Shown here piece after piece: positions 1 through 26,206 of a stretch of 38,917 nucleotides of DNA (position 1 is the stretch's first letter; each line of letters begins with the position of its first letter). The DNA is taken from IMG/VR virus record IMGVR_UViG_3300045988_014907, one strand, 5' to 3'. The notes under the pieces are model-generated. The model saw only the letters and a program-made list of their open reading frames with translations, was not told the DNA's origin and ran no database searches. The stretch is from a virus. A program made the translations under genes and the position numbers.

Positions 1-99
1 AAGTAAATGGACGCTGTGAAGTTTTTGCAGGAAAGAGCAAGAATGTGTAAATCCATGAACGGAGATTGCAACCAGCCGTGCCCAATTACTAATTGGTGC
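1..99. repeat. Direct terminal repeat, copy 1 (identical to 38819-38917). Marks a circular or terminally redundant 38,818-bp genome.
   Basis: aagtaaatggacgctgtgaag...ctaattggtgc occurs at both ends of the window, 99/99 nt by direct comparison. Confidence 0.95.
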
Positions 100-375
100 G
101 GGAGAGGCAAAAAAAGACAAGCGGAGTTTGCACACGACATCGTGTCCGCTGTCGAAGCGTGGTCTGCCGCACACCCGCGCAAGACGCGGCAGGATGTGTT
201 TCTGGAGCAGTGGCCGGAGGCGAGGATAGACCAAACCACAGGCGTACTTACCATTTGCCCAGCAGAACTAACAAAAGAATGCAGAGATGATAGAGAGGCG
301 TGCGGGGCATATTCGGTAGAAACGTGTGTTTGCGAACCCTGTCGCCGCGAGTTCTGGTTGCAGGAGGTGGAGTGA
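7..375 (+). CDS. Cys-rich hypothetical phage early protein (5' part duplicated at 38825-38917)
   Basis: 122-aa ORF. Its stop overlaps the next start (TGATG at 373-377). Protein-like composition with several CxxC-like pairs. Confidence 0.6.
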   Translation: MDAVKFLQERARMCKSMNGDCNQPCPITNWCGRGKKRQAEFAHDIVSAVEAWSAAHPRKTRQDVFLEQWPEARIDQTTGVLTICPAELTKECRDDREACGAYSVETCVCEPCRREFWLQEVE

Positions 376-875
376 TGGAACGACTGACGGAATATGAAAG
401 CATTGCAGGACACGCGCACGCAATACCCATCGTAAGCGACATGGATGTCATTATGATGCGCCTCGCCGCCTACGAGGACAGCGGGTGTGCGCCGGAGGAA
501 GTTCTGCCGAAGGATAAGGCGGACGAGATCGCGCTGAAGCTTATGCGGCTTGCTGATTTGGAAAGTCTTTGCAGCTATGACCGCCTGCGAACGCTGGCCG
601 AGGCCGACAAGGACGGGCGCGTGGTGGTGCTACCATGCGAGGTGGGCGATACGGTGTATGCAATAGAAAATCCGTGGACGGGGAAATTGCTAAAAAACCC
701 GATAGAAGCCTACGTCAATGGCATGAAGAAGTTTTCTCACGGTTTATATGTGAATGTGCTTTTCGATACCCGCAAAATCAACGGGACAAGGGACTACGAG
801 GTCAACCATATTGGCAAGACCGTATTTCTGATCCGCGAGGAGGCGGAGAAAGCATTGGAGGCGATGAAGAAATGA
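375..875 (+). CDS. Hypothetical phage protein with an MxRLT...RLAAYEDSG N-terminal motif
   Basis: ATG 375 lies after GGAGGTGG. It shares M[ED]RLT and RLAAYED[ST]G motifs with the 38178-38600 product. Its stop overlaps the next start (ATGA at 872-875). Confidence 0.6.
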   Translation: MERLTEYESIAGHAHAIPIVSDMDVIMMRLAAYEDSGCAPEEVLPKDKADEIALKLMRLADLESLCSYDRLRTLAEADKDGRVVVLPCEVGDTVYAIENPWTGKLLKNPIEAYVNGMKKFSHGLYVNVLFDTRKINGTRDYEVNHIGKTVFLIREEAEKALEAMKK

Positions 876-1420
876 GCAAGGCTGTCATGCTGAGCGTCCG
901 CCCGAAATGGTGCGAGAAGATCGTCAACGGCAAAAAGACCATTGAAGTGCGAAAGACCCGTCCAAAGCTGGAAACGCCGTTTAAGTGCTATATCTACTGC
1001 ACGCTGCAAGGCTGTAACGAGTTTTTTCGAGTTGATCTTGGGCGTGATGTTGCCAAGTGGAACCGCGGCAAGTGGGCAGACCGCAAGGGCAAGGTCATTG
1101 GCGAGTTCACCTGCGACCGGATTTACAAGATTGACAAGGACAGTACGGATTTTCTTTTTAAGGCCGGGGGACTATCCGTCTACAAGCAAGCTGCCGAAGA
1201 AAAGTGTGGCCTGTGTGTGGCTATGACAGACGATGAGTTGCACGGCTATCTTGGACATTGCCAAGGCTACGGCTGGCATATCTCCGGCTTGAATATCTAC
1301 GATAAGCCGAAGAGGTTGGACGAGTTTACTTGTCTGCGTGAAACGAAATTTGGCTCGGAGCCGGTGACAATCAAGCGCGCACCGCAGAGCTGGTACTATG
1401 TGGAAAACATGGAGGGCTGA
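872..1420 (+). CDS. ASCH domain protein (PUA-like fold)
   Basis: The N-terminus MSKAVMLSVRPKWCEKIVNGKKTIEVRKTRP matches the ASCH pattern from memory. Start and stop are coupled to the neighbouring genes. Confidence 0.65.
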   Translation: MSKAVMLSVRPKWCEKIVNGKKTIEVRKTRPKLETPFKCYIYCTLQGCNEFFRVDLGRDVAKWNRGKWADRKGKVIGEFTCDRIYKIDKDSTDFLFKAGGLSVYKQAAEEKCGLCVAMTDDELHGYLGHCQGYGWHISGLNIYDKPKRLDEFTCLRETKFGSEPVTIKRAPQSWYYVENMEG

Positions 1421-1422
1421 CA

Positions 1423-1650
1423 ATGGCTGAATTGAAACGCTGCCCTGAGTGCGGTGGAGTTGCAACCGTTATCCATATGTACGATACCTACGATAGAGCA
1501 GACTTTGGGTGGGATGCCGGTTGTGGGAGATATAGGGCTGGTGATGGCCTCCACACAAAGAAGATGAAAGTATCTGGGCTGCCCAGCAAAGAAAAGGCAA
1601 TCGAAGCATGGAACAGGAGGGCTGACAATGGCAACAAAGAGAGTGTGTGA
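1423..1650 (+). CDS. Lar-family restriction-alleviation-like Zn-ribbon protein
   Basis: 75 aa with an N-terminal LKRCPECGG Zn-ribbon half and a C-terminal KEKAIEAWNRRA motif typical of the Lar family. SD GGAGGG lies 7 nt upstream. Confidence 0.6.
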   Translation: MAELKRCPECGGVATVIHMYDTYDRADFGWDAGCGRYRAGDGLHTKKMKVSGLPSKEKAIEAWNRRADNGNKESV

Positions 1651-1978
1651 CCGCTGCGGAGCGGAGATCAACCCGCCCAACTCCGTCACCTATGCCGGTA
1701 TGCGGCGAGTTAAGACAGACATAAACGACAACGACTACGAGCTGTGTGTTTCGTGCGCTCACGAACTGCGGAAGTGGTTCAATATCGAAAATGCTCCTGA
1801 CACTGTCGTATCTACCGCGGTGCATGGGGTGCGTGGGCGGTGGGTAACGCACTACCGAAGCGGCACGCCTGTTGCCGAGGGGTATGTATCAACGTGCTGC
1901 GATATGTGGAATAACCGCAAGAGCGATTTCTGCCCCAGCTGCGGCGCGGTGATGGACGGAGGTGCTGACAATGGCTGA
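1628..1978 (+). CDS. Zn-ribbon hypothetical protein (HGxRGRW...CPSCGAVMDGG type)
   Basis: CDRCG and CPSCG pairs. Overlaps its neighbours. Paralogous C-terminus with the next two ORFs. Confidence 0.6.
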   Translation: MATKRVCDRCGAEINPPNSVTYAGMRRVKTDINDNDYELCVSCAHELRKWFNIENAPDTVVSTAVHGVRGRWVTHYRSGTPVAEGYVSTCCDMWNNRKSDFCPSCGAVMDGGADNG

Positions 1979-2270
1979 ATATATTAAGCGCGAAGTGGCG
2001 ACAGACGCAGTTACAGAGGTCTACTACAATACGCCGAATGTTAATCTATCCGGGGCAAAGTTTGCGGCGGCAATCAACGCCATCCCCGCTGCTGATGTTG
2101 CCCCGGTGGTGCATGGGCGATGGGAATACACCCCGCAAACGTTTAACACACTCGGTCAGATTAGGTGTCCGTTTTGTGCGTGGTGGTCTCTTGACCAGTC
2201 CATTGACGGCATTTATAAATACTGCCCCAACTGCGGGGGGAAAATGGACGGGGGGATAGTTGATGGTTAA
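1971..2270 (+). CDS. Zn-ribbon hypothetical protein (VVHGRW...CPNCGGKMDGG type)
   Basis: ATG 1971 lies after GGAGGTG. Carries CPFC and CPNCG pairs. Confidence 0.6.
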   Translation: MAEYIKREVATDAVTEVYYNTPNVNLSGAKFAAAINAIPAADVAPVVHGRWEYTPQTFNTLGQIRCPFCAWWSLDQSIDGIYKYCPNCGGKMDGGIVDG

Positions 2271-2472
2271 AGTGTTCTGTGATATGTGCGGGCGCGAGAT
2301 CGACTACGAGGTTGACGGCGTGAATCTGGATTTCAACCACTATGGCGTTGTGAATTTTAAGTTAAAATTTTCTGCGGAGAAACAACTGTGCCTCTCCTGC
2401 GCGGCCAGAGTCTGCAACTTTGTGGAGAACGGCGCGAAGATGGACGGAGGTGACAACGATGCGGCTGATTGA
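2263..2472 (+). CDS. Small Zn-finger hypothetical protein ending in AKMDGG
   Basis: CDMCG and CLSC pairs. ATG 2263 overlaps the upstream stop codon. Confidence 0.55.
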   Translation: MVKVFCDMCGREIDYEVDGVNLDFNHYGVVNFKLKFSAEKQLCLSCAARVCNFVENGAKMDGGDNDAAD

Positions 2473-2740
2473 CGCAGAAGAATTAGAGGGCTTGTTTAAC
2501 GAGCAAATTGAACACGGCGCAACAGATGCGTTTGATGCGTTTGATGATGCTTTGCAAGATGCAACCACCGTAGACGCAGAAATCGTGGTGCGCTGCAAGG
2601 AATGCAAGCACTACGACATGGGCGTTTGCCTGAAAATTTACTCAGACGGCAACGTACACTCAGCGGCTTGGCAAAAGCGAAATCCGGAGGACTTCTGCTC
2701 CTACGGCGAGAGAGAGGACTGCGGCGATGCAGATCGGTGA
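2459..2740 (+). CDS. Hypothetical small acidic/Cys protein
   Basis: ATG 2459 lies after GGAGGTG. Contains a CKECKHYDMGVC motif. 93 aa. Confidence 0.55.
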   Translation: MRLIDAEELEGLFNEQIEHGATDAFDAFDDALQDATTVDAEIVVRCKECKHYDMGVCLKIYSDGNVHSAAWQKRNPEDFCSYGEREDCGDADR

Positions 2741-2921
2741 TACCATCCGTGCGCGGTTTCTGACGATGCCGGAGCCGTTCCCCGGCGCCGGGGCGACAAA
2801 GGACAATCTGTACCCTGTGCGCAAGGCGGCGGTGGTGTATGTGCATCCGAAGGGTCGATACATCGTGGCGGAGTGCAAGGGCGTGCGGGAAACGTTTTTC
2901 CCGGAGGAGGTGCTGACATGA
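2727..2921 (+). CDS. Hypothetical small protein
   Basis: 64-aa ORF overlapping both neighbours in operon fashion. Confidence 0.5.
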   Translation: MQIGDTIRARFLTMPEPFPGAGATKDNLYPVRKAAVVYVHPKGRYIVAECKGVRETFFPEEVLT

Positions 2922-3151
2922 GCGAATTCCCGGAACGGCTTAGAAAGCTGCGGGAGAAAAAGAGACTGAAGCGGTATGTGCTGTCGGAGCGCTGCGGGCT
3001 GAATTCAGATGCTATACGCCGATATGAGCTGGGGACGGCGAAGCCGACGATGGACGCGCTGAAGAGCATAGCGGATGAATTCGGCGTGTCGGTGGACTAT
3101 CTGATGGGAAGGACGGACTATCCCTGCGTGGTAGATATTGCAGAAAAATAA
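2918..3151 (+). CDS. XRE-family helix-turn-helix transcriptional regulator (operon-terminal, Aca-like position)
   Basis: ERLRKLREKKRLKRYVLSERCGLNSDAIRRYELG...VSVDYLMGRTD is a canonical HTH_3 pattern. ATG 2918 lies after GGAGGTG. Confidence 0.8.
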   Translation: MSEFPERLRKLREKKRLKRYVLSERCGLNSDAIRRYELGTAKPTMDALKSIADEFGVSVDYLMGRTDYPCVVDIAEK

Positions 3152-3205
3152 ATTTTGAAAATTCCACTTAAAAGTGGAAAAATTAAAAAAACGCACTTTA
3201 TCATG

Positions 3206-3249
3206 GGAGATGCAGAGGCAAACTCTGCATCTCCATTCTTTTTCTTTTC
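3206..3249 (+). terminator. Rho-independent terminator
   Basis: Perfect 12-bp stem ggagatgcagag / ctctgcatctcc with loop gcaaa, followed by attctttttcttttc. Confidence 0.85.
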
Positions 3250-3404
3250 ACCCTTCTTTCCTGATGGGCGGTGCTTCGGCTCCGCCCGGATGGAGCAATA
3301 TGCAGACGTAGCTCAGATGGTAAGAGCATTTCGCCAATAATGAAGTTGTAGAGGACAACTACGATCCTGTTTTACCGGCAGAGCCGAAGAGCAAACTTGG
3401 CGCT

Positions 3405-4160
3405 GTGTACCAGCTTGGAGACCATCGCCTTATGTGCGGAGATAGCACGTCTTTGACAGACGTACAGAAGCTCGTGGGGGGGGCACAAATGGATTTGCTG
3501 CTCACAGACCCTCCGTACAATGTGGACTATCAGGGCACCGCCGGGAAGATTAAGAACGACAATATGGAGGATACGGCATTTAGACGGTTCCTGACGGACG
3601 CGTTTTCCAATGCGGCGATGGTTATGAAACCCGGCGCTCCATTTTACATTTGGCACGCAGACAGCGAGGGGTATAACTTTCGAGGCGCGTGCAGAGATGC
3701 GATGCTGCGTGTCCGGCAGTGCCTGATCTGGGTGAAGAACTCCCTTGTGATGGGGAGACAGGATTTCCAGTGGAAACATGAGCCTTGCCTGTATGGCGAG
3801 AGCGAGATTGAAGAAGAAGCACACGAACCTTGCCTGTACGGCTGGACGGAAGGGAAGAAGCATTATTTCTTCAAGAACCGCAGGCAGACAACCGTGTTGA
3901 ATTTTGATAAGCCTGTCAAATCTGCAGAGCATCCGACGATGAAGCCGATTAAGCTGTTTGATTACCAAATGCAGTGCTCCAGTAAGCCAGGTGAGAATGT
4001 GCTTGACCTGTTCGCTGGGTCCGGCACAACGATCATGGCGGCGGAGCAGAATGGCAGACACGCTTTCTGCATGGAGTATGATCCGAAGTATGCCGATGTC
4101 ATTGTTGACCGGTGGGAGAAGTTTACGGGGAAGAAAGCGGTGCTTTTGAATGACGATTGA
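3405..4160 (+). CDS. N6-adenine/N4-cytosine DNA methyltransferase (N6_N4_Mtase family), apparently N-terminally truncated
   Basis: Contains DPPY (motif IV) and FAGSGTT (motif I). The only start is GTG 3405, with a weak SD. The in-frame upstream sequence (3324-3404) still reads like the linker of ParB-methylase fusions. Confidence 0.85.
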   Translation: MYQLGDHRLMCGDSTSLTDVQKLVGGAQMDLLLTDPPYNVDYQGTAGKIKNDNMEDTAFRRFLTDAFSNAAMVMKPGAPFYIWHADSEGYNFRGACRDAMLRVRQCLIWVKNSLVMGRQDFQWKHEPCLYGESEIEEEAHEPCLYGWTEGKKHYFFKNRRQTTVLNFDKPVKSAEHPTMKPIKLFDYQMQCSSKPGENVLDLFAGSGTTIMAAEQNGRHAFCMEYDPKYADVIVDRWEKFTGKKAVLLNDD

Positions 4161-4255
4161 AGAAGCACAGGAGATTATTGCCAAAACCAGCAGCCCGTAT
4201 TTGAAGCGGGACATGGAGAAGTTTATTAAACGCCAACGCAGAAAGGAGGGCGTGT

Positions 4256-4624
4256 ATGGCAAGGCCAAGAAAGGAAATAGACCAGAAGCAGTTCGAGAAC
4301 CTCTGCGGCCTGCAATGCACGCTTGAGGAGATCTGCGGTTGGTTTGATGTGACTGATAAAACACTGGACAGTTGGTGTAAACGCACCTATCATGCCAGTT
4401 TTTCCGAGGTATTTAAGCAAAAGCGAGGAGCGGGGAAAATTTCGCTGCGTCGGAGCCAGTGGCAGCTTGCGGCAAAGAACGCAAGCATGGCTATTTGGCT
4501 GGGGAAACAGTACCTTGGGCAGCGTGATATTGTTGAGCTGGGTTTGCCGACGGACAACACAAAGGACGACGCATTGAGCGTGAGCTTGCGTGAAATGGCA
4601 GAAGGGTTGGAGAGCGATGATTAG
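4256..4624 (+). CDS. terS: Terminase small subunit
   Basis: ARPRKEIDQKQFENLCGLQCTLEEICGWFDVTDKTLDSWCKR is an HTH-type N-terminus. The gene lies immediately upstream of and overlaps TerL. SD is GAAAGGAGGG. Confidence 0.75.
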   Translation: MARPRKEIDQKQFENLCGLQCTLEEICGWFDVTDKTLDSWCKRTYHASFSEVFKQKRGAGKISLRRSQWQLAAKNASMAIWLGKQYLGQRDIVELGLPTDNTKDDALSVSLREMAEGLESDD

Positions 4625-5837
4625 CCCGAAGCAGCAGAAGATCCTTGCTTTCCCCTATTCCAAGTATGACGCGCTGATCTGCGACGGCGCTGTGCGTTCC
4701 GGCAAGACCTCCATCATGATGTGGGCGTTCGTCCGCTGGGCGATGGAGAATTTCAGCGGTCAGCGTTTTGGCGTGTGTGGACGCACGGTGGACAGCTGCA
4801 CCAAGAACATCATCGTTCCCTTCACGGCGATGAGCCTTGCAAAGGAACGCTATATCATCCGCTGGCGGCGCGGCGACAAGGTAATGGAAGTGCGGCGCGG
4901 AGCCGTGACAAATTACTTTGAGGTGTTCGGAGGAAAGGACGAGGCAAGCTTTACGCTGATACAAGGCCGCACGCTGGCGGGGGTGCTGCTGGACGAAGTA
5001 GTGCTGATGCCGCGCTCGTTCGTGGAACAGGCATTGACCCGTTGTTCGGTAGACGGGGCAAAGCTGTGGTTTTCCTGCAACCCGGGAAGCCCGCAGCACT
5101 GGTTTTATACAGAGTGGATACAGCGGAACAAAGAGCGAAACGCGCTGTATCTGCATTTTGAAATGACGGACAACCCCGGCCTATCTCAAAAGACACTGGA
5201 ACGCTATCAAGCAAATTTTTCCGGGGTGTTCTACGACCGATACATTCGCGGCCTGTGGGTGGTGGCCGAGGGGCTGATCTATCCCATGTTTGACGAGAGC
5301 TGCATTGTGGATGATATTCCGCATAAGGGTGAGTATTACATTTCCTGCGACTACGGCACACTTAACCCGTTTTCCGCAGGGCTGTGGTGCTGGGACGGCA
5401 AGTCGGCCACGCGCATCCGCGAGTATTACTATTCCGGGCGCGAGAACCAGAAGAACAAGACGGACGAGGAATACGCCGACGAAATTAAAAAGCTCGTCGG
5501 CGAGGCGGATGTCAAAAGCATCATCGTTGACCCGTCTGCCGCCTCGTTCATCGAGGTCTTGCGGCGGCACGGTTATATGGTGCGAAAGGCCAACAACGAC
5601 GTAACCAACGGCATTGTGACTACGGCACGGTTTTTGCAGGACGGCGTAATCAAGATACACCGAGATTGCAAAGACTGCATCCGCGAGTTTGGTTTATATC
5701 GGTGGGATGAAAAATCCGCCGACGACAGACCAATCAAAGAAAACGATCACGCAATGGACGAGACGCGCTATTTTGCCTATACGATTTTGAAAAATAAGGC
5801 GTATCGACGCGATTATACACCACTTTGGAACAGATAG
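4617..5837 (+). CDS. terL: Terminase large subunit (PBSX/Terminase_6-like)
   Basis: Walker A-like CDGAVRSGKTS, plus LLDEV (Walker B-like) and a C-terminal nuclease-type region (DHAMDETRY). Confidence 0.9.
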   Translation: MISPKQQKILAFPYSKYDALICDGAVRSGKTSIMMWAFVRWAMENFSGQRFGVCGRTVDSCTKNIIVPFTAMSLAKERYIIRWRRGDKVMEVRRGAVTNYFEVFGGKDEASFTLIQGRTLAGVLLDEVVLMPRSFVEQALTRCSVDGAKLWFSCNPGSPQHWFYTEWIQRNKERNALYLHFEMTDNPGLSQKTLERYQANFSGVFYDRYIRGLWVVAEGLIYPMFDESCIVDDIPHKGEYYISCDYGTLNPFSAGLWCWDGKSATRIREYYYSGRENQKNKTDEEYADEIKKLVGEADVKSIIVDPSAASFIEVLRRHGYMVRKANNDVTNGIVTTARFLQDGVIKIHRDCKDCIREFGLYRWDEKSADDRPIKENDHAMDETRYFAYTILKNKAYRRDYTPLWNR

Positions 5838-5872
5838 GACGGTGAGCGGCTATCAAAACATATAACGACCTC

Positions 5873-7228
5873 GTGGCGGTCGGTGACAACGAGCAGGCGC
5901 GGATAGAGTTTATCCGCAGCGCGATCAATGAGCATCGCGATAGCACGGCGTATAAAACGGCGGTAGATGCGGAGGCGTACTATGACGGCTTGAATCCGAC
6001 CATCAACCGCTATGAGAAGATCATCTACGATATGCAGGGGCGCAGCCACACGGATATGTGGACGGCGAACCATAAGCTTGCCAGCCGCTTCTTCGGTTTG
6101 GCGGTGGATCAGGAGGTTTCGTATCTGCTGGGAAACGGCGTGACCTTTGCGGAGAAGGACACACCGAACAAGCTATGCCCGGACTTCGACCAGGAAGTCA
6201 TGGATGCGGCGCGGGCGGCGAAAATCGCAGGCGTATCCTTCGGCTTTTGGGATCTGACGCATCTTCGGGTGTTCTCCCTGCTTGAGTTCGTTCCCCTCTA
6301 TGATGAAGAGGACGGTGCAATGAAAGCCGGCATCCGCTTTTGGCAAGTGGCGCCGGATAAGCCTTTGCGAGCGACACTGTACGAGCTGGACGGCTTTACC
6401 GAATATTTCCAGCCGAAGAACAAAGATATGAGCGTATTGCAGGAAAAGCGCAGCTATAAGCTCGTTATCCGCAAGGCCGAAGTCGGCGAAACAGAGATTT
6501 ACGACGGCGGCAATTATCCGAGTTTCCCAATCGTCCCGCTGAAAAACAACAAGCGGTGTCTCTCCGAGATCGTCGGCAAGCGCAACACCATTGACGCGCT
6601 GGATCTGGCGTCCTCTAACATGGTCAACAACGTGGACGAGGGCAATCTGATCTATTGGGTGCTGTCCAACTGCAACGGCATGGACGATCTCGACGATGCG
6701 AAGTTTGTGGAGCGCCTGAAAACCACTCATGTCGCCCACGCCAACGGCGACGATGGCGCGAAGGTGGAGAGCAAGACCATCGAGGCACCGTACGAAGGCA
6801 CGAGCAGCACCATTGATATGCTGAAAAAGAAACTCTATGAAGATTTCCAGTGCTTTGATGCTGCGGCGGTATCTGCCGGCAACCAGACGGCGACGGCAAT
6901 CAAGGCCAGCTATGTGCCGCTGGATTTGAAAACGGACAAGTTTGAATCCGAGGTCACGCGGTTTATTGTTGAGATTCTTCGCCTGGCAGGCATTGAGGAT
7001 CAGCCGAGTTACACGCGTAATCAGATTATTAGCAAGAGCGAGGAAACACAGAACATTCTTCTGGGCGCAGCGTATTACGATGACGAGTACATCACAAAGA
7101 AGCTGCTAACGATCAACGGCGACATTGACCAGTACGAGGACATGGCGAAGCGCAAGGCGGCGGAAGAGATTGACCGGAGTTTTGCGGAACCGGATGCGCC
7201 GGGGGTGAGCGGCGATGGCGAACAGTGA
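5873..7228 (+). CDS. Portal protein (SPP1 gp6-like)
   Basis: Size (451 aa), position after TerL, and an N-terminal pattern typical of SPP1-type portals. The start codon is uncertain (see findings). Confidence 0.8.
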   Translation: MAVGDNEQARIEFIRSAINEHRDSTAYKTAVDAEAYYDGLNPTINRYEKIIYDMQGRSHTDMWTANHKLASRFFGLAVDQEVSYLLGNGVTFAEKDTPNKLCPDFDQEVMDAARAAKIAGVSFGFWDLTHLRVFSLLEFVPLYDEEDGAMKAGIRFWQVAPDKPLRATLYELDGFTEYFQPKNKDMSVLQEKRSYKLVIRKAEVGETEIYDGGNYPSFPIVPLKNNKRCLSEIVGKRNTIDALDLASSNMVNNVDEGNLIYWVLSNCNGMDDLDDAKFVERLKTTHVAHANGDDGAKVESKTIEAPYEGTSSTIDMLKKKLYEDFQCFDAAAVSAGNQTATAIKASYVPLDLKTDKFESEVTRFIVEILRLAGIEDQPSYTRNQIISKSEETQNILLGAAYYDDEYITKKLLTINGDIDQYEDMAKRKAAEEIDRSFAEPDAPGVSGDGEQ

Positions 7229-19379: not shown

Positions 19380-19709
19380 ATGGAAGCATGGACGAATGTC
19401 GGCGTGCCACTCCTTGTGGCGCTGCTGACCTCTACGGCGCTGTGGGGCGTGGTGAGCAAGGTGATCCTCAAGCGGATGGAGCTGGCGGCCAAGCGCAGCA
19501 AGGCAGACGAGTCGGAGCGGAAGATGCTGGTGGGACTGGCTCACGACCGCATCATTCACCTTGGCATGGTGTACATCGAGCGGGGCTACGTCACGCAGGA
19601 CGAGTACGAGAATTTGCAGGTGTACCTCTACGAGCCGTATGAGGAGATGGGCGGCAACGGCAGCGCACGGCGCGTCATGGAGGAAGTGCGGAAGCTGCCC
19701 ATACGGTGA
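19380..19709 (+). CDS. Membrane protein of the lysis cassette (single N-terminal TM)
   Basis: TM segment VGVPLLVALLTSTALWGVV. SD is AAGGAGGTG. Lies directly upstream of the holin gene. Confidence 0.55.
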   Translation: MEAWTNVGVPLLVALLTSTALWGVVSKVILKRMELAAKRSKADESERKMLVGLAHDRIIHLGMVYIERGYVTQDEYENLQVYLYEPYEEMGGNGSARRVMEEVRKLPIR

Positions 19710-19752
19710 GGCATAAAATGGAACAGGCCGACAGGCCGGAAAGGAATTTGTT

Positions 19753-19968
19753 ATGAAGCTGAACAACAAGGTATACGACATTATGAAATGGCTGGTCATC
19801 ATCGTCATGCCTGCCGTGGCCACGCTGTACGCGGCGCTGGCGGCGGTGTGGGCGTGGCCCTACGCAGACGAGGTGGTGACCACCATCACCGCCGTGGACA
19901 CGTTCCTCGGCGCGGTGCTGTGCATCAGCACGGCGCAGTATCACAAGGAAAACAAGCTGGAGGTGTGA
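19753..19968 (+). CDS. Holin (Dp-1-like family)
   Basis: 71 aa with two TM segments. KVYDIMKWLVIIVMPAVATLYAALAAVW matches the pattern of Dp-1-type holins. Adjacent to the endolysin gene. Confidence 0.7.
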   Translation: MKLNNKVYDIMKWLVIIVMPAVATLYAALAAVWAWPYADEVVTTITAVDTFLGAVLCISTAQYHKENKLEV

Positions 19969-19971
19969 GCC

Positions 19972-20790
19972 ATGCCGACGGTACAGGCTGTGGTGGCGCT
20001 GCTGGAGGGCGAGCGGGGCTATCTGGAAAAGAAGTCCAACGCCCAGCTGGACAGCAAAACCGCCAACGCGGGGTATAACAACTACACCAAGTATACGCGG
20101 GATATCGACGCGGCGGACATCAACGACGCACGGTATCAGGGACAGGCGTGGTGCTGCAGTCTGGCGATCTGGCCGGAGCTGCACCTGTCTGGCGCGGCAG
20201 AGGCGCGGGAGCGGTTCTACCTGCCGGTGCCGTCCAAGTGTAAGGCGTACAACTGCGAGTGGCTGGCGGGGTATTTCCGCAGCGCCGGTGCGTGGTACGC
20301 GGAGCCGCAAGTGGGAGACTTCATCTTCTTCCGCACGGCACGGTACAGCTACGCCCATGTGGGCCGCGTGGTGGCCGTGGAGGGCAACACCGTGTATACC
20401 ATCGAGGGCAACACCTCCGGCGCAGACGGCGTGGTAGCCAACGGCGGCGGGGTGTTTCGCAAGTCGTACCAGCGGGGGTCGTGGAACATCGTGGGCTACG
20501 GCCGCCCGAAGTGGAAGGAAGGCGAGCGGGACGATCCCGCAGAGGCGAAGGAGGATGAGGAGAAGTTGGATATGCAGGTACGGATGCTGCGCCGCGGCAT
20601 GAAGGGCGCGGACGTGAAGACTCTGCAAGCGGCGCTGATCGCCTACGGATTCTCCTGCGGTGCGGCCGGTGCGGACGGCGACTTCGGCAGCGGCACGGAG
20701 ACGGCGCTGAAGAAGTTCCAGACCAAGTACGGCCTCGGCGCTGACGGTATCGCCGGAAAGGGGACTTGGGGCAAGCTGCTGGGGCAGTAA
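19972..20790 (+). CDS. Endolysin: CHAP amidase/peptidase domain plus PG_binding_1 domain
   Basis: CHAP-like Cys (GQAWCCS) and His (YAHVGRVV...TIEGNTS). C-terminal GADVKTLQAALIAYGF...DGDFGSGTETALKKFQ...GLGADGIAG. Confidence 0.85.
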   Translation: MPTVQAVVALLEGERGYLEKKSNAQLDSKTANAGYNNYTKYTRDIDAADINDARYQGQAWCCSLAIWPELHLSGAAEARERFYLPVPSKCKAYNCEWLAGYFRSAGAWYAEPQVGDFIFFRTARYSYAHVGRVVAVEGNTVYTIEGNTSGADGVVANGGGVFRKSYQRGSWNIVGYGRPKWKEGERDDPAEAKEDEEKLDMQVRMLRRGMKGADVKTLQAALIAYGFSCGAAGADGDFGSGTETALKKFQTKYGLGADGIAGKGTWGKLLGQ

Positions 20791-20863
20791 GGAAATCGTT
20801 TTTTTTATGTGAAGAGAGCGACACATTTACGGATCCAAAACTCTGGACGAAACAGGGATAACG

Positions 20864-21160
20864 ATGCGCCGACCCCTGCTTCCGCCAAAGCTCCGCAAGT
20901 CCACGGCGAATATGATCGCCATGAATACAACTTACCGAGACATCCGCGCAAGACTGCGCAGTATGTCCCCGCAACGCGCCATTGATTACGTTGCCGCGCT
21001 TGAGCTTCCGGGAGACGAGGCGTTTTGCATCATCGCGTGCGACGTTAAGCAACAATCCCGCCAGCAGGTGGCAAACAGGCTGTTTTCATCGGTCGAGTAT
21101 GTCAAGAAGTGCCGCCGCAACGGTTACCAAAAGATTGCCGACCATATCAAAAACCCATAA
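20864..21160 (+). CDS. Sigma-70 region-4-like HTH protein (start uncertain)
   Basis: The C-terminal part QQSRQQVANRLFSSVEYVKKCRRNGYQKIADHI resembles a sigma r4/LuxR-type HTH. Followed by a strong terminator. Confidence 0.45.
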   Translation: MRRPLLPPKLRKSTANMIAMNTTYRDIRARLRSMSPQRAIDYVAALELPGDEAFCIIACDVKQQSRQQVANRLFSSVEYVKKCRRNGYQKIADHIKNP

Positions 21161-21168
21161 AGTAAAGA

Positions 21169-21210
21169 CCCAACAAAGACCTTTTTCAGGCTCTTTGTTG
21201 GGCCTTTTTT
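21169..21210 (+). terminator. Rho-independent terminator
   Basis: 11-bp stem cccaacaaaga / tctttgttggg followed by ccttttttgttg. Confidence 0.8.
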
Positions 21211-21244
21211 GTTGTATGTTGTGAGATATACAGGGGGTGTCGAA

Positions 21245-21394
21245 ATGAGTGTAATGGAGCGGCTGTTGACGTGCGGGTATACGGCGGATATGGCGCGGGA
21301 TATATGCGACCAATACGGAGCGGACTTTGCTGGATTGCTTTTCCTTGTGCGCATCGTGGAGCTTTTCCACGACGATAGGCGCGAATATGTATAG
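21245..21394 (+). CDS. Small hypothetical protein (49 aa)
   Basis: ATG lies after AGGGGGTG. Overlaps the next ORF. Confidence 0.45.
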   Translation: MSVMERLLTCGYTADMARDICDQYGADFAGLLFLVRIVELFHDDRREYV

Positions 21395-21770
21395 CTACTA
21401 CAATGAAAACCCACGAGGTAAAAACGTAGGCGACTGTACCGTCAGAGCCATATCAAAAGCAACTGGCAAGGACTGGGGTGAGACGTACCTCCGGCTTTGC
21501 GTACAAGGATATCTTGACGGGGATATGCCGTCGGCTAATTCCTGCTGGGGCGCTTATCTTCGGTCGGTAGGTTTCCAACGGTACATCGTGCCGGATACCT
21601 GTCCTGATTGTTACACAGTTGGCCGTTTTGCCGATGAGCACCCATTTGGAACGTATATTCTCGCGCTCTCCGGTCATGTCGTGTGTGTACAAGATGGTGT
21701 TTTATATGACAGCTGGGACAGCAGCAACGAAACAGTTTTGTATTATTGGGAAAGGACGGATGAAGCATGA
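21387..21770 (+). CDS. Hypothetical protein with a papain-like Cys/His/Asp arrangement
   Basis: GKNVGDCTVRAIS (candidate nucleophile) and LSGHVVCVQDGVLYDSWD (His/Asp). The fold assignment is inference. Confidence 0.45.
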   Translation: MYSYYNENPRGKNVGDCTVRAISKATGKDWGETYLRLCVQGYLDGDMPSANSCWGAYLRSVGFQRYIVPDTCPDCYTVGRFADEHPFGTYILALSGHVVCVQDGVLYDSWDSSNETVLYYWERTDEA

Positions 21771-22177
21771 ACTACCCATACTACGGAAACCCCTATATGC
21801 CGCCGATGCAGGACAATCTCGCCCAGCTGAGGCAGCAGCAGATGCAGGCCATTCCTCCGATGCCGCAAAATCCCCTGCCGCAGAGCGGCGTGCAGTGGGT
21901 ATCCGGCGAACAGGAGGCAAGAAGCTGGATGGTCGCTCCCAATGCGGCGGTGGCGCTGTGGGATTCAACGGCGCCCACGGTGTATCTGAAACAGGCCGAT
22001 GCAAGCGGCAAGCCGACGCTCAAGGTGTATGACCTCGTGGAGCGGCTTGCAAGCGCGCCTGACGCGCAGAAAGCGCCCGCTGCTGAATATGTGACCCGTA
22101 AGGAGTTTGACGCGCTGGCGGCGCTTGTGAGTGAAATGAAGGGCAAGAAGCGCAAGGAGGAAAAGAGCGATGAATAA
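21767..22177 (+). CDS. Hypothetical protein with a Pro/Gln-rich N-terminus
   Basis: 136-aa ORF with an ATGA overlap to the upstream gene. Confidence 0.55.
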   Translation: MNYPYYGNPYMPPMQDNLAQLRQQQMQAIPPMPQNPLPQSGVQWVSGEQEARSWMVAPNAAVALWDSTAPTVYLKQADASGKPTLKVYDLVERLASAPDAQKAPAAEYVTRKEFDALAALVSEMKGKKRKEEKSDE

Positions 22178-22370
22178 TCCGTTTTTCGGTGCAATGGGCG
22201 GCGGCAACGGCTTTATGCAGATGGTGCAGCAGTTCAAGCAGTTCAAGGCGAATTTCCAGGGCGACCCAAAAGCAGAGGTGGAGAAGCTTTTGCAGAGCGG
22301 CAAGCTCACGCAGCAGCAGTTGAACCAGCTCCAGCAGATGGCGAAGCAATTTCAAAGTCTGATGGGATAA
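22170..22370 (+). CDS. Small Gln-rich hypothetical protein
   Basis: 66-aa ORF that overlaps the upstream gene. Confidence 0.5.
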   Translation: MNNPFFGAMGGGNGFMQMVQQFKQFKANFQGDPKAEVEKLLQSGKLTQQQLNQLQQMAKQFQSLMG

Positions 22371-22396
22371 GCAAAGTCTAAGCAAAGGCTTAGCAA

Positions 22397-22429
22397 AAAC
22401 ATAAGACGAAACATAAGACGAAACATAAC
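22397..22429. repeat. 12-nt tandem repeat aaacataagacg x2.75
   Basis: Copies at 22397-22408 and 22409-22420, plus a partial copy at 22421-22429. Preceded by three copies of taagcaaag-like 11-nt units (22368-22398). Confidence 0.9.
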
Positions 22430-22436
22430 TTGTTTC

Positions 22437-22464
22437 TTGATCGTGGCCGCGATTTAGATAAATT
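22437..22464 (+). promoter_or_regulatory. Candidate sigma-70-type promoter of the cargo cassette
   Basis: TTGATC, 16-nt spacer, TAAATT, about 25 nt upstream of the AAAGGAG SD of the 22489 gene. Confidence 0.3.
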
Positions 22465-22488
22465 ACATCAATAAAAAGGAGTGATACT

Positions 22489-23184
22489 ATGTCTCTTTCC
22501 GAGGGTATGCCCACCATGACCATGCCTGTGACCCCTGCCAATGGCAGCGGTAACGGCTTTGGCTTTGGCGGTGACGGCGCGTGGTTCCTTATCATCCTGT
22601 TCCTGTTCGCGTTCTGCGGCTGGGGCGGCAATGGCTGGGGCAACAACGCTGGCAATTCCGGCGGTGTGGTGGACGGCTATGTGCTGGCCTCCGACTTCTC
22701 CAATATCGAGCGCAAGATGGATCTCATCAACGGCGGGCTGTGCGACGGCTTCTATGCCGTGAACAACACGCTGTTGACCGGCTTCGGCAATGCCGAGCTG
22801 TCCCGCGCCAACCAGCAGGCCGCACTGATGCAGCAGCTCAGCGCTATGCAGATGCAGGCGGCAAACTGCTGCTGCGAGAACAGAGCCGCCATTGCGCAGG
22901 TGCGCTACGACATGGCGACGCAGGCGTGTGACACGCGGAACACTGTGCAGAACGCCACCCGCGACATCGTGGAGAATCAGAACGCCAACAGCCGCGCCAT
23001 CCTGGACTTCCTGACCAACTCCAAGATGCGCGATCTGGAGAGCGCAAATCAGGAGCTGCGTCTGGCCGCGTCTCAGGCGGCGCAGAACAACTACCTGATC
23101 TCCCAGCTGCGGCCTACGCCCATCCCGGCGTATGCATCCTGCAACCCGTGGGCTGGCAGCTACACCGGCTGCTCCGGCTGTTGA
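22489..23184 (+). CDS. Membrane protein: Gly-rich N-terminus, one TM, coiled-coil/Cys-cluster ectodomain, Cys-rich C-terminus
   Basis: Contains GSGNGFGFGGDGAWFLIILFLFAFCGWGGNGWG, a CCCE cluster, and ends CNPWAGSYTGCSGC. SD is AAAGGAG. Confidence 0.7.
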   Translation: MSLSEGMPTMTMPVTPANGSGNGFGFGGDGAWFLIILFLFAFCGWGGNGWGNNAGNSGGVVDGYVLASDFSNIERKMDLINGGLCDGFYAVNNTLLTGFGNAELSRANQQAALMQQLSAMQMQAANCCCENRAAIAQVRYDMATQACDTRNTVQNATRDIVENQNANSRAILDFLTNSKMRDLESANQELRLAASQAAQNNYLISQLRPTPIPAYASCNPWAGSYTGCSGC

Positions 23185-23241
23185 CAACTGCGCGGCGGGG
23201 CAATAGCTCCGCCGTCTGCATTTTTGAAAGGAGTGAGTATT

Positions 23242-23664
23242 TTGGCTGAGTATACCAATACAAACATCGTTTCTGTTCCTGCCGGACAGAATGTGCCGCT
23301 GACGGAAACTGCCGTTGCGGGCAAGTCCTGCATCGTACACCGCGAGGGCAGCGGGCAGGTGTTCCTGCGCGGCCTGACAAACCAGTGTAAGGCACGGTTT
23401 CGCGTGTCCTTCGGCGGAAACATTGCCATCCCCACCGGTGGCACGGTGGGCGCAATCTCCGCCGCGCTGGCTATCAACGGAGAGCCGCTGACCAGCGCCG
23501 TGGCAACGGTAACGCCCGCCGCCGTAGAGAACTATTTCAATATCTTCGTCGCTGCCAACGTGGACGTGCCGAAGGGCTGCTGCGTAACGGTGGCGATGGA
23601 GAACACCAGCGCTCAGGCGATCAGTTTTGCCAATATCAACATGATCGTGGAGCGCGTCTGCTGA
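23242..23664 (+). CDS. Small all-beta (possibly C1q/TNF/BclA-C-terminal-like jelly-roll) protein
   Basis: TTG start 8 nt after AAAGGAG gives MAEYTNTNIV... The sequence alternates in a beta-rich pattern. The fold is inference. Confidence 0.55.
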   Translation: MAEYTNTNIVSVPAGQNVPLTETAVAGKSCIVHREGSGQVFLRGLTNQCKARFRVSFGGNIAIPTGGTVGAISAALAINGEPLTSAVATVTPAAVENYFNIFVAANVDVPKGCCVTVAMENTSAQAISFANINMIVERVC

Positions 23665-23676
23665 AGGAGGTAAAGC

Positions 23677-24066
23677 ATGAGCATGAAATCTATGTATGAG
23701 CTGCGCGATATGCTTTGCGATGAGCTGGACGAAATTGCCAGAAAGGGTGAGCTTGGCGCAGGTGACCTGGATATCGCGCACAAACTGGCAAGCACCATCA
23801 AAAATCTGGATAAAATTGAGGCAATGGAAGGTGGCGGCTATTCCAGAGCTGGGTATCAGCCGCGTCGGTATCCGCACGATGAGTACGGAGGTGGTAGCTC
23901 CTACGCAAGAAGCCGAAAGCATTATGTCCGGGGTCATTACAGCCGCGACAGCGCACGCGACGGAATGAGACGGCAGTTGCAGGATATGCTGGATAGCGCA
24001 GACGATGACACCATCCGAAGCGCCATTCAGCGCTGCATGGACGTGCTGGAGGACGAAAGGGGGTAA
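23677..24066 (+). CDS. Hypothetical protein with a central Arg/Tyr/Gly/Ser-rich disordered segment
   Basis: SD is GGAGG. Helical ends flank GGGYSRAGYQPRRYPHDEYGGGSSYARSRKHYVRGHYSRDSARD. Confidence 0.6.
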   Translation: MSMKSMYELRDMLCDELDEIARKGELGAGDLDIAHKLASTIKNLDKIEAMEGGGYSRAGYQPRRYPHDEYGGGSSYARSRKHYVRGHYSRDSARDGMRRQLQDMLDSADDDTIRSAIQRCMDVLEDERG

Positions 24067-24073
24067 ACACCCC

Positions 24074-24388
24074 ATGATTGATGAGACCGAGATCAAAAGG
24101 TGGATAGCGCGGTTAGAAACCGAAGAGTCCAGCTGGACAAACTATGAACGCCTTGCCGTGCTGTATACGGTGCTTAACCAGCAAAACGACGTTAACAACA
24201 AAATGTCGCCAATGCTGTATTCCGCCGCTCCTGCACCGGTTGAAGTTTTCGGCGACAGCGACTTTCTGCGGGCCGTATCAGCTGTTGAGCCAAGTGTGGC
24301 ATGGGCGGTTATGGACGAACTGATGGACAGTTTGAAAGTTGTTAACGAGCGCGTCTACAACAGCGTCATGCGTAAACTCGATAGGTAA
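24074..24388 (+). CDS. Hypothetical protein (last gene of the cargo cassette)
   Basis: 104-aa ORF followed directly by a strong terminator. Confidence 0.55.
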   Translation: MIDETEIKRWIARLETEESSWTNYERLAVLYTVLNQQNDVNNKMSPMLYSAAPAPVEVFGDSDFLRAVSAVEPSVAWAVMDELMDSLKVVNERVYNSVMRKLDR

Positions 24389-24421
24389 AAAATCCCCCGT
24401 CATTTACGGCGGGGGATTTTT
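24387..24421. terminator. Bidirectional intrinsic terminator between the convergent cargo and integrase genes
   Basis: aaaaaatcccccg ... cgggggattttt: a GC stem flanked by an A-run and a T-run. Confidence 0.8.
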
Positions 24422-24465
24422 AGGTATACTTACCCTTTGTGTCCGCCAAGGTAAAATATGCCTAA
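24420..24465. other. Candidate attP core (imperfect dyad) next to the integrase 3' end
   Basis: ttaggtatacttacc / ctttgtgtccgccaa / ggtaaaatatgcctaa. The two arms are imperfect inverted repeats. Confidence 0.3.
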
Positions 24466-25790
24466 CGCGGCGTTACGAAAAACGCGCCATCGTTGTCTGC
24501 ATCAATCCGCTTGATGAAGCGCGTCCAGAATTCCTTTTTTTCTTCCCGAGAGTATGTGCCATATTCGCCCAGCCCGTTTCTCAAGGCGTCGAGGTCTGTC
24601 TTCGGCTTTTCCTCCACGGTTTCGAGGGATCTTTTCAAGATCGAGTATTCCGCTTTATAATCGTCAAGCTCAATCAAATCGTTTAGGTATAGCGTTTTTA
24701 GCTTGCTCATTTTCTTTCGTATCGAGTCCGCGCTTTGCGTGGGCTTTTTTTCGGCCTTTTTGTAGTACCTATTGTTCCGCTCTGCGATTCCAGCAAGCTC
24801 GTGTAGTAGGTAGTCTTCCAACACGTCCTCTCGTATCCTTTTTGTGTGCGGGCAAGAGGTGTTATCAAGCATCCGCGTCCGGCATCGGTAATATGTATAT
24901 GTCTTCTTTACGGTTTCCGATTGCATCGTTTTCCCGCATTCTTTACAATGCAGTATCCCGGAAAACAGATACACGCGGTCTGTGTCAACTCCCGCACAGC
25001 GTTGTGACCGCTGGCGAATAATATCATTTACAATGTCAAAGTCTTGCTTGCTCACCAACGCGGGGCAAGCATTTTCGATGCCGTAAACCTCGCCGATGTA
25101 AAGACGGTTACGGAAATAGTTTACATACTTGCTGTAAGTACGGTCAATGCCCCATGTGTCAAGCATATATCGCTTTACGGCAAGGACGCTTTTTAGCCGG
25201 ATAAACGCCGCGAACATATCTCGCGCCGCATCTGCCGTGCCGTTATCAATCTGGTATTGCCTGTCCTTGATGGCATACCCTAAAGGCGCTTTTGAGCCTG
25301 CCGGTTGTCCTTTTGCCCGTTTCCCATCGTTGATAAATTTGATTCGTTCACTCGTGCGGTCGGCCTCATCCTGCGCGACTGACAACATGATATTGACTTT
25401 CAAACGCCCTGATGCGGTGCGCGTTTCGTAATCTTCTTCCGTCGCTTGCCATGTTACGCCGTACTGGTCGAGCTGTGTTTGTACATCGTAATACCCTGCG
25501 ACATTGCGAAACCAGCGGTCAAGTTTGACAAACAGAATCATGTCTATCTGACCGTCTTTGCAATCGCCCAGCAGTCGCAGGAGCGCAGGGCGCTTTTTAT
25601 ACGGCTTTCGCGCGGATATTCCTGCGTCCTCATATATGCCCACCACGGTCATCTTGTGTTCTTTTGCATATCTTATCAGCGCGTCCCGCTGCTCTTGCAG
25701 GGACAGGCCATGCCGCGCCTGTTCTTCGCTTGAGACGCGGATATACAAAGCCACTCTTATCAAAGCCACTCTCATCAATGCCGCTATCAT
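24462..25790 (-). CDS. Large serine recombinase (phage integrase)
   Basis: Resolvase-type N-terminus (YIRVSSEEQ...), recombinase domain, a Zn-ribbon (CKECGKT...YYRCRT...CPH) and a coiled-coil C-terminus. ATG 25790 lies after GGAGGGGG. Confidence 0.9.
   Translation of the reverse strand: MIAALMRVALIRVALYIRVSSEEQARHGLSLQEQRDALIRYAKEHKMTVVGIYEDAGISARKPYKKRPALLRLLGDCKDGQIDMILFVKLDRWFRNVAGYYDVQTQLDQYGVTWQATEEDYETRTASGRLKVNIMLSVAQDEADRTSERIKFINDGKRAKGQPAGSKAPLGYAIKDRQYQIDNGTADAARDMFAAFIRLKSVLAVKRYMLDTWGIDRTYSKYVNYFRNRLYIGEVYGIENACPALVSKQDFDIVNDIIRQRSQRCAGVDTDRVYLFSGILHCKECGKTMQSETVKKTYTYYRCRTRMLDNTSCPHTKRIREDVLEDYLLHELAGIAERNNRYYKKAEKKPTQSADSIRKKMSKLKTLYLNDLIELDDYKAEYSILKRSLETVEEKPKTDLDALRNGLGEYGTYSREEKKEFWTRFIKRIDADNDGAFFVTPR
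25746..25790 (-). repeat. Three tandem 15-nt copies of the integrase start region (encoding MIAAL / MRVAL / IRVAL)
   Basis: Minus strand reads atgatagcggcattg | atgagagtggctttg | ataagagtggctttg. Confidence 0.85.
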
Positions 25791-26206
25791 CAAATCCCCC
25801 TCCAAAATCCGTAATCTATACAATGAAAATCAATGTACACGCACCACGCAGCGAGAAGAACAATTATAAAAAACATTATAGCAATCACGCCGTTGCGGAT
25901 ACGCACTCCACGCCGCATGATCTCGATCATGTCTGCTTTTGCGTCAACATGGCGTTCCAGCTCATCATTCCGCGCCTGCAAAGTTTCCTCGGTCGGCGTC
26001 AGGTGTTCGGAAATTCCGAACGTCTCGTCAAGGGATATGCCCATTGCCTTGCAGATCGGCGCAACAGTGTAAATGGACGGCGACTTTGAAAACTTGGAAA
26101 AGAAATTCTGCACGGTGGACAACGGTACGCCGGAAGTGTCGGAAATGTCCTGATAGGTCAGTTTCAATTCTTCTTTGCGGATTCTACACACCTCTTGAAT
26201 GTTCAT
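25790..26206 (-). CDS. Membrane-anchored XRE-family HTH regulator, translationally coupled to the integrase
   Basis: N-terminal HTH (LTYQDISDTSGVPLSTVQNFFS), coiled coil, and a C-terminal TM (VIAIMFFIIVLLAAWCVYI). The stop overlaps the int ATG (TGATG). The start is 26206 or 26212. Confidence 0.75.
   Translation of the reverse strand: MNIQEVCRIRKEELKLTYQDISDTSGVPLSTVQNFFSKFSKSPSIYTVAPICKAMGISLDETFGISEHLTPTEETLQARNDELERHVDAKADMIEIMRRGVRIRNGVIAIMFFIIVLLAAWCVYIDFHCIDYGFWRGI

Follow-up and report, generated by a model that had tools for sequence, protein, structure and literature searches.

In the naps of the Bacillus exosporium, a trimer of the jelly-roll protein ExsFA/BxpB anchors the leader of BclA or of F-Anchor (7R1M, 8D02, 9H3D and 1WCK); ExsF binds a proline-rich leader peptide, and cleavage of BclA precedes its attachment (PMC12357932). 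ENA subunits join a jelly roll to an N-terminal connector that bears cysteines, TNF-family ligands carry a TNF-fold trimer on a membrane-anchored stalk, and temperate phages of Gram-positive bacteria harbor morons for lysogenic conversion in the interval from the lysin gene to attR. With these systems in mind, we analyzed an array of small genes in the IMG/VR virus record IMGVR_UViG_3300045988_014907, the whole of which (38,917 nt) is called the window; coordinates refer to this whole stretch, and L-numbers denote the related loci that were compared. A reading of the sequence alone (the sequence-only reading) had described positions 22437 to 24421 as a self-contained four-gene cassette and a candidate for lysogenic conversion. 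We found that the conserved unit is composed of nine genes, sigR4-S0-PA-PB-PC-P1-P2-P3-P4, and that the four genes noted earlier are its distal half. Our favored explanation, to which we give a probability of only about 35%, is that these genes encode a very late, membrane-tethered, cysteine-rich phage complex serving an envelope-level step at the end of infection. The parts of the unit are as follows.

20864-21160, plus strand: sigR4, a 98-aa helix-turn-helix (HTH) protein; its gene ends the lysis operon and opens the conserved array
21164-21207, plus strand: intrinsic terminator of the lysis operon, with 16-nt inverted-repeat arms (-21.8 kcal/mol, z -4.5) followed by a U-run
21245-21394, plus strand: S0, a 49-aa small helical protein; open reading frame (ORF) with a Shine-Dalgarno (SD) site and without a Pfam match
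21387-21770, plus strand: PA, a 127-aa Cys/His/Asp protein, putative minimal papain-like peptidase (phrog_3754)
21767-22177, plus strand: PB, 136 aa; N terminus rich in Q/P/Y, small beta domain, charged helix at the C terminus (phrog_21718)
22170-22370, plus strand: PC, a 66-aa Q/K-rich helical protein (phrog_22984)
22368-22429, plus strand: repeat tract from a repeat scan, AGCAAA every ~11 nt, then AAACATAAGACG twice in tandem
22440-22466, plus strand: candidate P1 operator/promoter, the dyad ATCGTGGCCGCGAT (22440-22453) followed by the -10-like TTAGATAAAT
22489-23184, plus strand: P1, 231 aa, the signature protein of the module (phrog_16490 at 2.7e-48)
23189-23225, plus strand: hairpin and T-run in the P1-P2 spacer, putative attenuator/intrinsic terminator (-22.7 kcal/mol, z -4.0)
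23242-23664, plus strand: P2, 140 aa, predicted TNF/C1q-like jelly roll of the BclA-CTD/ExsF type (CTD, C-terminal domain; phrog_20016 at 3e-60)
23677-24066, plus strand: P3, 129 aa, helix, R/Y/G/S-rich disordered core, helix; exchangeable accessory (phrog_28802)
24074-24388, plus strand: P4, a 104-aa helical protein; exchangeable accessory
24388-24421, both strands: bidirectional intrinsic terminator closing the module, with 12-nt perfect inverted-repeat arms (-23.3 and -18.3 kcal/mol for the two strands)

Loci with P1 relatives were fetched from IMG/VR (80 loci) and from GTDB genomes (80 loci), their ORFs were classified by iterative hidden Markov models (HMMs), and counts were made over 166 loci. 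P1 was present in all 166, PB in 152, PC and P2a in 135 each, PA in 128, P3 in 126, sigR4 in 119, P4 in 89 and P2b in 19. The string sigR4-PA-PB-PC-P1-P2a-P3(-P4) was the commonest, being found in at least 94 of the 166 loci, and departures from it were mostly loci cut by contig ends. P1, P2 and P3 occurred together in about 126 loci, so that gene neighborhoods bore out the earlier view of a single functional module. PB, where found, was invariably upstream of P1. Since the most divergent loci retained PB-P1-P2 only, and since L006-L011 kept PB, PC, P1 and P2 at 97 to 100% identity to the window (PA, ~63%; P3, ~42%; P4, absent), we conclude that PB-(PC)-P1-P2 is a co-inherited core. The minimal core is PB-P1-P2, while PA, P3 and P4 are exchangeable. 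The four genes are thus not self-contained: S0, PA, PB and PC belong to the unit as well, and the core straddles the left boundary drawn for the cassette. A second type of array harbored the Cys-rich beta protein P2b instead of P2a and a DUF7841 protein instead of P3 and P4. By tblastn, P3 was found in only 11 phage records, all of which also held P2.

The same arrangement recurred in Butyrivibrio phage Ceridwen, in the order lysin, transmembrane protein, sigR4, terminator, S0 (at the equal position, L001 5881-6087), PA, PB, PC, P1, P2, HNH insertion, P3 and P4. The examined 16-kb stretch of Ceridwen contained no integrase; only lytic growth has been observed for this phage, which its authors judged virulent. 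HNH or I-HmuI-type endonuclease genes were seen in or beside the module of four unrelated phages, namely, Ceridwen (L001 8452-9315), CPD1 (L003 4017-4667), Dulem virus 33 (L002 6410-6961, minus strand) and C3_41T2LP (L086 4270-4890), and the conserved DNA of the module may perhaps be a homing target.

S0, PA, PB and PC are co-directional, translationally coupled genes lying between the lysis-operon terminator and P1. The start and stop codons of PB overlap those of PA and PC, and 118 nt separate PC from P1. Much of the layout given by the sequence-only reading was confirmed. Its four plus-strand ORFs are present and each is preceded by a GGAG-type SD site, both flanking terminators fold with the energies listed above, and the repeat-rich upstream region, with 12-nt and 11-nt repeats, is real. 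Its descriptions of the proteins also agreed with ours for the Gly-rich hydrophobic N terminus and many cysteines of P1, the modeled jelly roll of P2 and the R/Y/G/S-rich core of P3. The start codon of P2 is the TTG at 23242 rather than 23224, in agreement with the MAEYTN start of its homologues. The GC content was 0.56 to 0.58 over 22 to 24 kb, within the window range of 0.47 to 0.63, and base composition is therefore not deviant. A 542-aa antisense ORF (22468-24096, minus strand) covers the entire cassette, and a comparable one of 383 aa lies over the endolysin gene (19675-20826). Because the plus-strand genes have homologues, SD sites and PHROG matches, we consider these antisense ORFs by-products of GC-rich codon usage and not genes.

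None of the eight small module proteins matched a Pfam or NCBIfam model or, at E up to 1, a PADLOC component model, in line with the earlier statement that no known toxin, defense or lysis family is represented. Nuclease, ATPase and sensor domains were likewise absent from all module proteins by Pfam and NCBIfam, and seven of the eight belong to PHROG families without assigned function. Inspection of the window sequences revealed no signal peptide in the soluble module proteins, and collagen GXY repeats were not visible in any module protein. The median number of cysteines was 6 in PA, 10 in P1 (after the hydrophobic segment), 5 in P2a, 9 in P2b and 2 in P3, with none in PB, PC and P4.

In P1, a hydrophobic segment flanked by Gly precedes a helical region, which is rich in Q/N and contains an invariant CCC, and a tail of the form LRPxPxPAY...NPW...GCxGC, for which the family consensus is LRPxPxPAY...NPY...GCxC. 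At 50% identity, the family falls into 1632 clusters. Of the full-length representatives (n = 123), 91% harbored the CCC, 79% a Cys-rich C terminus and 89% a Gly-rich N-terminal region. The hydrophobic segment of P1 is the only one in the module, and its 25-aa flanks contain about 0.4 K/R and 6 to 9 Gly each. The N terminus of P1 gave no NCBIfam match to YjcZ-type tiny Gly-rich membrane proteins, and a lipobox was not visible in P1 or in the examined neighbors. A role of P1 as the holin was rejected, since it has no holin match in Pfam or PHROG and since a canonical holin and a transmembrane protein already precede the endolysin.

The AlphaFold2 model of P2 (pLDDT 89) is an all-beta jelly roll. 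Foldseek matched it in the PDB to the F-BclA CTD, ExsFA, BxpB and the BclA CTD, with E values of about 1e-6 and TM scores of 0.70 to 0.78 (9H38, 7R1M, 9H3D, 8D02 and 1WCK), and at a lower level to TNF ligands and phage fiber knobs. As modeled, the fold of P2 is a TNF-like jelly roll of the ExsF/BclA-CTD type. In BFVD, many stand-alone phage proteins of 130 to 145 aa resembled it with TM scores of 0.8 to 0.9. Membership in the BclA-C or ExsFA/BxpB sequence families was not detected, there being no sequence match in Pfam, NCBIfam or the PDB; the PDB sequence searches also returned nothing for P1, for PA (single sequence and profile) and for the P2b profile. A GCC motif is conserved in P2, and no other module protein is as well preserved among distant groups: its identity to the window is 74 to 80% where that of P1 is only 56 to 59%. 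This purifying selection argues against a diversifying receptor or antigen. Its replacement P2b is a beta-rich protein of ~130 aa with a Cys-rich N terminus (MACKPVCQLCKRL...).

In PA, residues C17, C75 and H97 were invariant and D108 was at least 90% conserved among 40 sequences, and a CPDC motif was present. The best PDB match of its AlphaFold2 model (pLDDT 93) was Josephin-2 (E 0.27, TM score 0.41); further weak, nonsignificant Foldseek matches, namely, PCAT1 C39, Tae4, PaTox and IdeC, are Cys peptidases as well. Relatives of PA stand alone in Bacillus Tsamsa-like phages, some of them annotated "putative peptidase," and in Prevotella Lak megaphages, and its C-terminal half is matched in many ~90-kb Pseudomonas phages (PAK_P2, PaP1 and JG004). 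These occurrences outside the module suggest that PA is a widespread phage domain recruited into it.

Scanning of 53 members of the sigR4 family identified Sigma70_r4_2 in 32, Sigma70_r4 in 26 and GerE in 20. The window protein had no direct Pfam match and is linked to the family via iterative HMMs only. In the window and in Ceridwen, sigR4 is transcribed together with the lysis genes, before the terminator.

Upstream of P1, two kinds of elements were distinguished. The first are the repeats, a 12-nt tandem of two AAACATAAGACG copies and two 11-nt copies of TAAGCAAAG. The 12-nt repeat (22397-22429; AAACATAAGACG or AAACGTAAGAC) varied in sequence and in copy number (~2 to 4) in L005-L011 and L049, among phages whose P1 proteins are 97 to 100% identical, and to judge from these sequences its pattern is that of a hypervariable minisatellite adjoining a conserved operator. 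A conserved regulatory role of the tandem was rejected, as it is confined to near relatives and variable in copy number. The second element is the dyad ATCGTGGCCGCGAT, whose only exact copy in the window is the one before P1. A GC-rich dyad with the consensus TCGTG(G/C)(C/G)CACGA was found, at a fixed distance from the P1 start codon, in 75 of 130 distinct regions upstream of P1, and a TTGaTAAAT-like -10-like element followed it in 40 of the 130, compared to 5.3 in shuffles. Distant loci kept the symmetry with other sequences, for example, TGCGGCCGCA and TCTGGCCAGA. The dyad was rejected as an RNA hairpin and is read as a DNA operator because it is palindromic through its center (GGCC, GCGC, TGCA or CCGG) and folds only weakly as RNA (-7.3 kcal/mol, z -1.7). 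As to the promoter proposed by the sequence-only reading, a consensus scan revealed no sigma-70 promoter before P1, where the conserved dyad and -10-like element lie instead; the four genes also contain an internal attenuator. As for sigR4, its candidacy as the dyad-specific binder was not supported, unrelated HTH variants occurring with the same dyad and recognition helices being alike across dyad types. A TTGTGAGATATAC element at 21207-21245, past the lysis-operon terminator and just before S0, resembles the -10-like motif upstream of P1 and may be a second promoter of this class.

The attenuator is conserved too, since a hairpin of -10 kcal/mol or stronger followed by at least four T residues was present in 75 of 127 distinct P1-P2 spacers. 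P1 to P4 are therefore not a plain operon, and P1 is expected to be made in excess over P2 to P4.

The region forms the right end of a siphovirus-type genome, in which the structural genes are followed by lysis genes, the array and the integrase. The features on either side of the array are as follows.

19380-19709, plus strand: transmembrane protein preceding the holin and the endolysin
19753-19968, plus strand: holin-like ORF of 71 aa with two transmembrane segments, preceding the endolysin
19972-20790, plus strand: endolysin, CHAP and PG_binding_1 (Pfam)
24462-25823, minus strand: large serine recombinase (integrase), convergent with the module and beginning 40 nt past it (Pfam Resolvase, 1e-29, and Zn_ribbon_recom; phrog_95 integrase)

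The closest relatives were from Oscillospiraceae, and the module or its analogues were found in phages of Oscillospiraceae, Lachnospiraceae, Clostridium, Negativicutes and Bacteroidota, including crAss-like phages; sample sources, where stated, were all gut, rumen or fecal. Several distant groups also carry the C-terminal half of P1, from the invariant CCC on. It was found in phages of C. perfringens, in the plaque-isolated Bacteroides uniformis phage C3_41T2LP, in viruses of Methanomassiliicoccales and in crAss-like phages, whose copies bear the annotation "spike protein/glycoprotein." The P1 relative had analogous neighbors in CPD1, cr116_1 and C3_41T2LP: a small Cys-containing beta protein, a beta and coiled-coil protein, a helix and R/D/Y-rich protein, and a helical or DUF7841 protein, with a small Zn-peptidase (PolyVal type) in the position of PA. 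P1 was the only part of the module detected in the Methanomassiliicoccales viruses. In one archaeal virus, vir215 (L085), the P1-like gene is closely preceded by a reverse transcriptase gene (3152-4186) that may belong to a diversity-generating retroelement, and an integrase gene lies ~4 kb downstream.

In public metagenomes, the best 120 clusters matching the window P1 were all 98 to 100% identical to it, and the best P2 match was 94% identical. Single P1 sequences were recorded in up to 555 contigs, the longest of 827 kb. Judged by these sequences, the phage/prophage lineage of the window abounds in human gut samples, and its module is internally mosaic.

The genomic flanks of the module were exchanged far more freely than its content. 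Endolysins of at least nine catalytic families were among the upstream neighbors, and the 116 distinct downstream neighbors included 50 tyrosine integrases, 17 serine recombinases and, in a few other cases, host genes; about 38 contigs stop within ~0.8 kb of the module. The integrase-end position claimed by the sequence-only reading therefore stands for 67 of the 116. A constant module between swapped lysins and integrases is the opposite of variable moron cargo. In the prophage of Vescimonas fastidiosa MM35, a cultured human-gut isolate (L171, NZ_AP023416.1, 252 to 255 kb), a holin, an amidase and a gap without a listed gene were followed by PB, PC and P1 to P4, and ~1.2 kb past P4 and one hypothetical gene lie lactate permease, LDH, miaB and mutL. 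The PGAP label on every module gene of this strain is "hypothetical protein." An occurrence of the module on plasmids was rejected, the sole PLSDB match being this prophage, in an 861-kb replicon of V. fastidiosa. In a sister lineage (L167-L170, positions 1 to 6478), a giant ORF immediately precedes the module. Its called length is 1075, 1823 or 2727 aa, depending on the contig, and the 2727-aa copy harbors a PBECR5 nuclease domain typical of polyvalent proteins; genes for an SDR, a LexA-like repressor and a rolling-circle Rep lie downstream of the module. Downstream of the module in L046 are ArdC-N and PolyVal peptidase genes.

The favored explanation, a very late membrane-tethered complex, takes these observations together. 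Expression would be switched on very late in lytic growth, once the late operon supplies the HTH protein. P1 would be overproduced via the attenuator and, as its sequence suggests, would insert into the cytoplasmic membrane by its uncharged Gly-flanked segment. By analogy, its helical domain and its LRPxPxPAY-NPY-GCxC tail could recruit P2 trimers, much as ExsF trimers clamp the proline-rich exosporium leader of BclA or F-Anchor. One of the components may be processed by a small peptidase (PA or, in other lineages, the Zn-peptidase), and the Cys clusters of PA, P1 and P2 might bind metal or lock the assembly by disulfides upon opening of the cell. As the soluble partners have no signal peptide, like the phage's own endolysin, their site of action would be the cytoplasm, or they would act once the holin has fired. 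The most likely endpoint is release, lysis control or the coating of released material.

Several points weigh against this explanation. The flanks of the P1 segment give no positive-inside signal, and the lysis cassette is complete without the module. The peptidase fold of PA is not significant in Foldseek, and P2b and P2c were not supported as remote homologues of P2a (hhalign probabilities of 0.2% and 1.1%). The HTH protein could instead be a repressor, and its sequence type does not covary with the dyad type. Finally, the position next to the integrase and attR is the classical site of cargo expressed from prophages, and the L167-L170 array lies near a LexA-like repressor gene.

The most serious rival, which we consider improbable, widens the sequence-only reading: the module would be cargo expressed from the prophage by its own dyad-controlled promoter to the benefit of host or prophage, for example in superinfection exclusion or as a new membrane-based anti-phage system, with P1 as the membrane effector. 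It is favored by terminators belonging to the module itself and by the conserved, operator-like dyad, by a position at the prophage end or next to the integrase in most temperate loci, beside host genes in V. fastidiosa MM35 and near a LexA-like repressor gene in L167-L170, and by very different genomic contexts, as of a mobile accessory unit. Its presence in lytic phages is compatible with such a role, since these also carry exclusion genes (T4 imm and sp). It is, however, hard to reconcile with exclusion that PADLOC and the search for nuclease, ATPase or sensor domains gave nothing, that the content is fixed, that the HTH gene lies in the late operon and that in a Blautia metagenome-assembled genome (L124) the array is inserted between portal/scaffold/capsid/connector genes and downstream late genes. 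Seven co-conserved proteins would also be unusual for exclusion. The lysogenic conversion proposed by the sequence-only reading is weakened by the array of Ceridwen, the analogues in C3_41T2LP, crAss-like phages and the Blautia head-gene block, the place of sigR4 as last gene of the late lysis operon, the normal base composition and the constant content between swapped flanks. A host-surface trait expressed from the prophage is unlikely.

The position in L124, together with that in cr116_1, where the array is near scaffold and capsid genes, speaks for a virion accessory, in which P2 would be a decoration trimer of capsid or fiber, PB a structural coiled coil and P1 a membrane-active ejection or pilot protein packaged with the peptidase. 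The fold of P2 also matches the phi812 central spike, the A-1(L) short fiber and tail fibers in BFVD, and the C terminus of the Bacteroides PB analogue matches phrog_473, "virion structural protein," at 1.4e-8. The P1 segment, with no flanking positive charge, resembles latent membrane-insertion segments, and genes for polyvalent proteins and PolyVal peptidases are nearby in some loci. Nevertheless, the standard siphovirus structural functions of the window are all upstream, beyond the lysis cassette and its terminator, and P2 has no shaft or attachment domain, which leaves this reading doubtful.

Proximity to lysis genes would suit a lysis accessory, P1 being a spanin-like or fusogenic disruptor, with its transmembrane segment, heptad helices and Pro/Cys-rich end, that completes envelope breakdown or times it by redox. 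The array directly follows endolysins of many catalytic families, and in cr116_1 it is also near a holin and a lysin. The architecture of P1 is reminiscent of Rz fused to Rz1, the lambda spanins, with cysteines and a proline-rich end, and the spike or glycoprotein annotation of the crAss-like homologues is in keeping with such a function. This reading is nonetheless rather improbable, given that the window phage, Ceridwen and CPD1 infect monoderm hosts, which have no outer membrane to fuse; moreover, no lipobox partner was visible among the examined neighbors, a holin and an endolysin are already present, and in CPD1, C3_41T2LP and L124 the array does not adjoin the lysis genes.

Very unlikely, finally, is a hitherto unrecognized system, common to gut and rumen phages of Firmicutes and Bacteroidota and perhaps also to methanogen viruses, that would assemble by itself from parts like those of the exosporium or of ENA. 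Its components would be a jelly roll (TNF-like or with a Cys connector), a membrane-bound poly-Cys scaffold, Q/Y/R-rich low-complexity proteins and a processing peptidase. If real, such a system would be made at the very end of infection and thiol-locked as the anaerobic cell opens, and it would coat, tether or cluster progeny virions or membrane debris, a phage equivalent of spore coats or appendages that helps survival and passage from one anaerobic host to the next.

The P1-type family is large and lacks a Pfam model, copies with 98 to 100% identity to that of the window being recorded in hundreds of gut metagenome contigs, and cultivable carriers of the module exist in Butyrivibrio phage Ceridwen, B. 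uniformis phage C3_41T2LP and the V. fastidiosa MM35 lysogen. A search of the literature for the module families, DUF7841, BclA/ENA in phages, crAss spanins and C. perfringens phage proteomics found no paper on any component.

Compared with the described systems, the module resembles lysogenic-conversion morons in its position, its own terminators and its convergent integrase, but differs from them by a fixed content of seven to nine genes over more than 90 loci, by its occurrence in lytic phages and structural blocks, by its normal GC content and by a regulator tied to the late operon. With spanins (lambda Rz/Rz1) and T4 holin T, P1 shares an N-terminal membrane segment, a large helical domain, cysteines, a Pro-rich end and a location adjoining lysis genes; unlike these, it has no lipoprotein partner and no holin or spanin family match, and it is found in phages of monoderm hosts next to a canonical holin. 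The trimer proposed for P2 and the anchored P1 would be analogous to TNF-family ligands, except that stalk and fold reside on separate gene products and that there is no sequence relationship. The Cys-rich N terminus of P2b resembles the Ntc/CC-motif logic of Ena1 and Ena3, which is only a lead, as P2b has no sequence match to any PDB chain or Pfam model.

A close parallel is with the anchoring of exosporium naps. P2 shares the jelly roll, the Pro-rich motif of P1 could by analogy play the part of the leader peptide, the module includes a putative peptidase gene, and its partners, like those of ExsY/CotY and ENA assemblies, are rich in cysteine. On the other side, the sequence identity of P2 to the exosporium proteins is 8 to 14%, Pfam, including BclA-C, gives no match, a collagen repeat or exosporium-leader motif is missing, the system is phage-borne and the partner P1 has a hydrophobic membrane segment. 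Several of the module hosts are not known to form spores. As no membership test placed the module in a known system, its novelty is judged by exclusion, and it may be a known function in a new guise. A conserved function of several phage proteins that spans cell envelopes as different as these would represent new phage cell biology, whether it serves lysis and release, exclusion or the virion.

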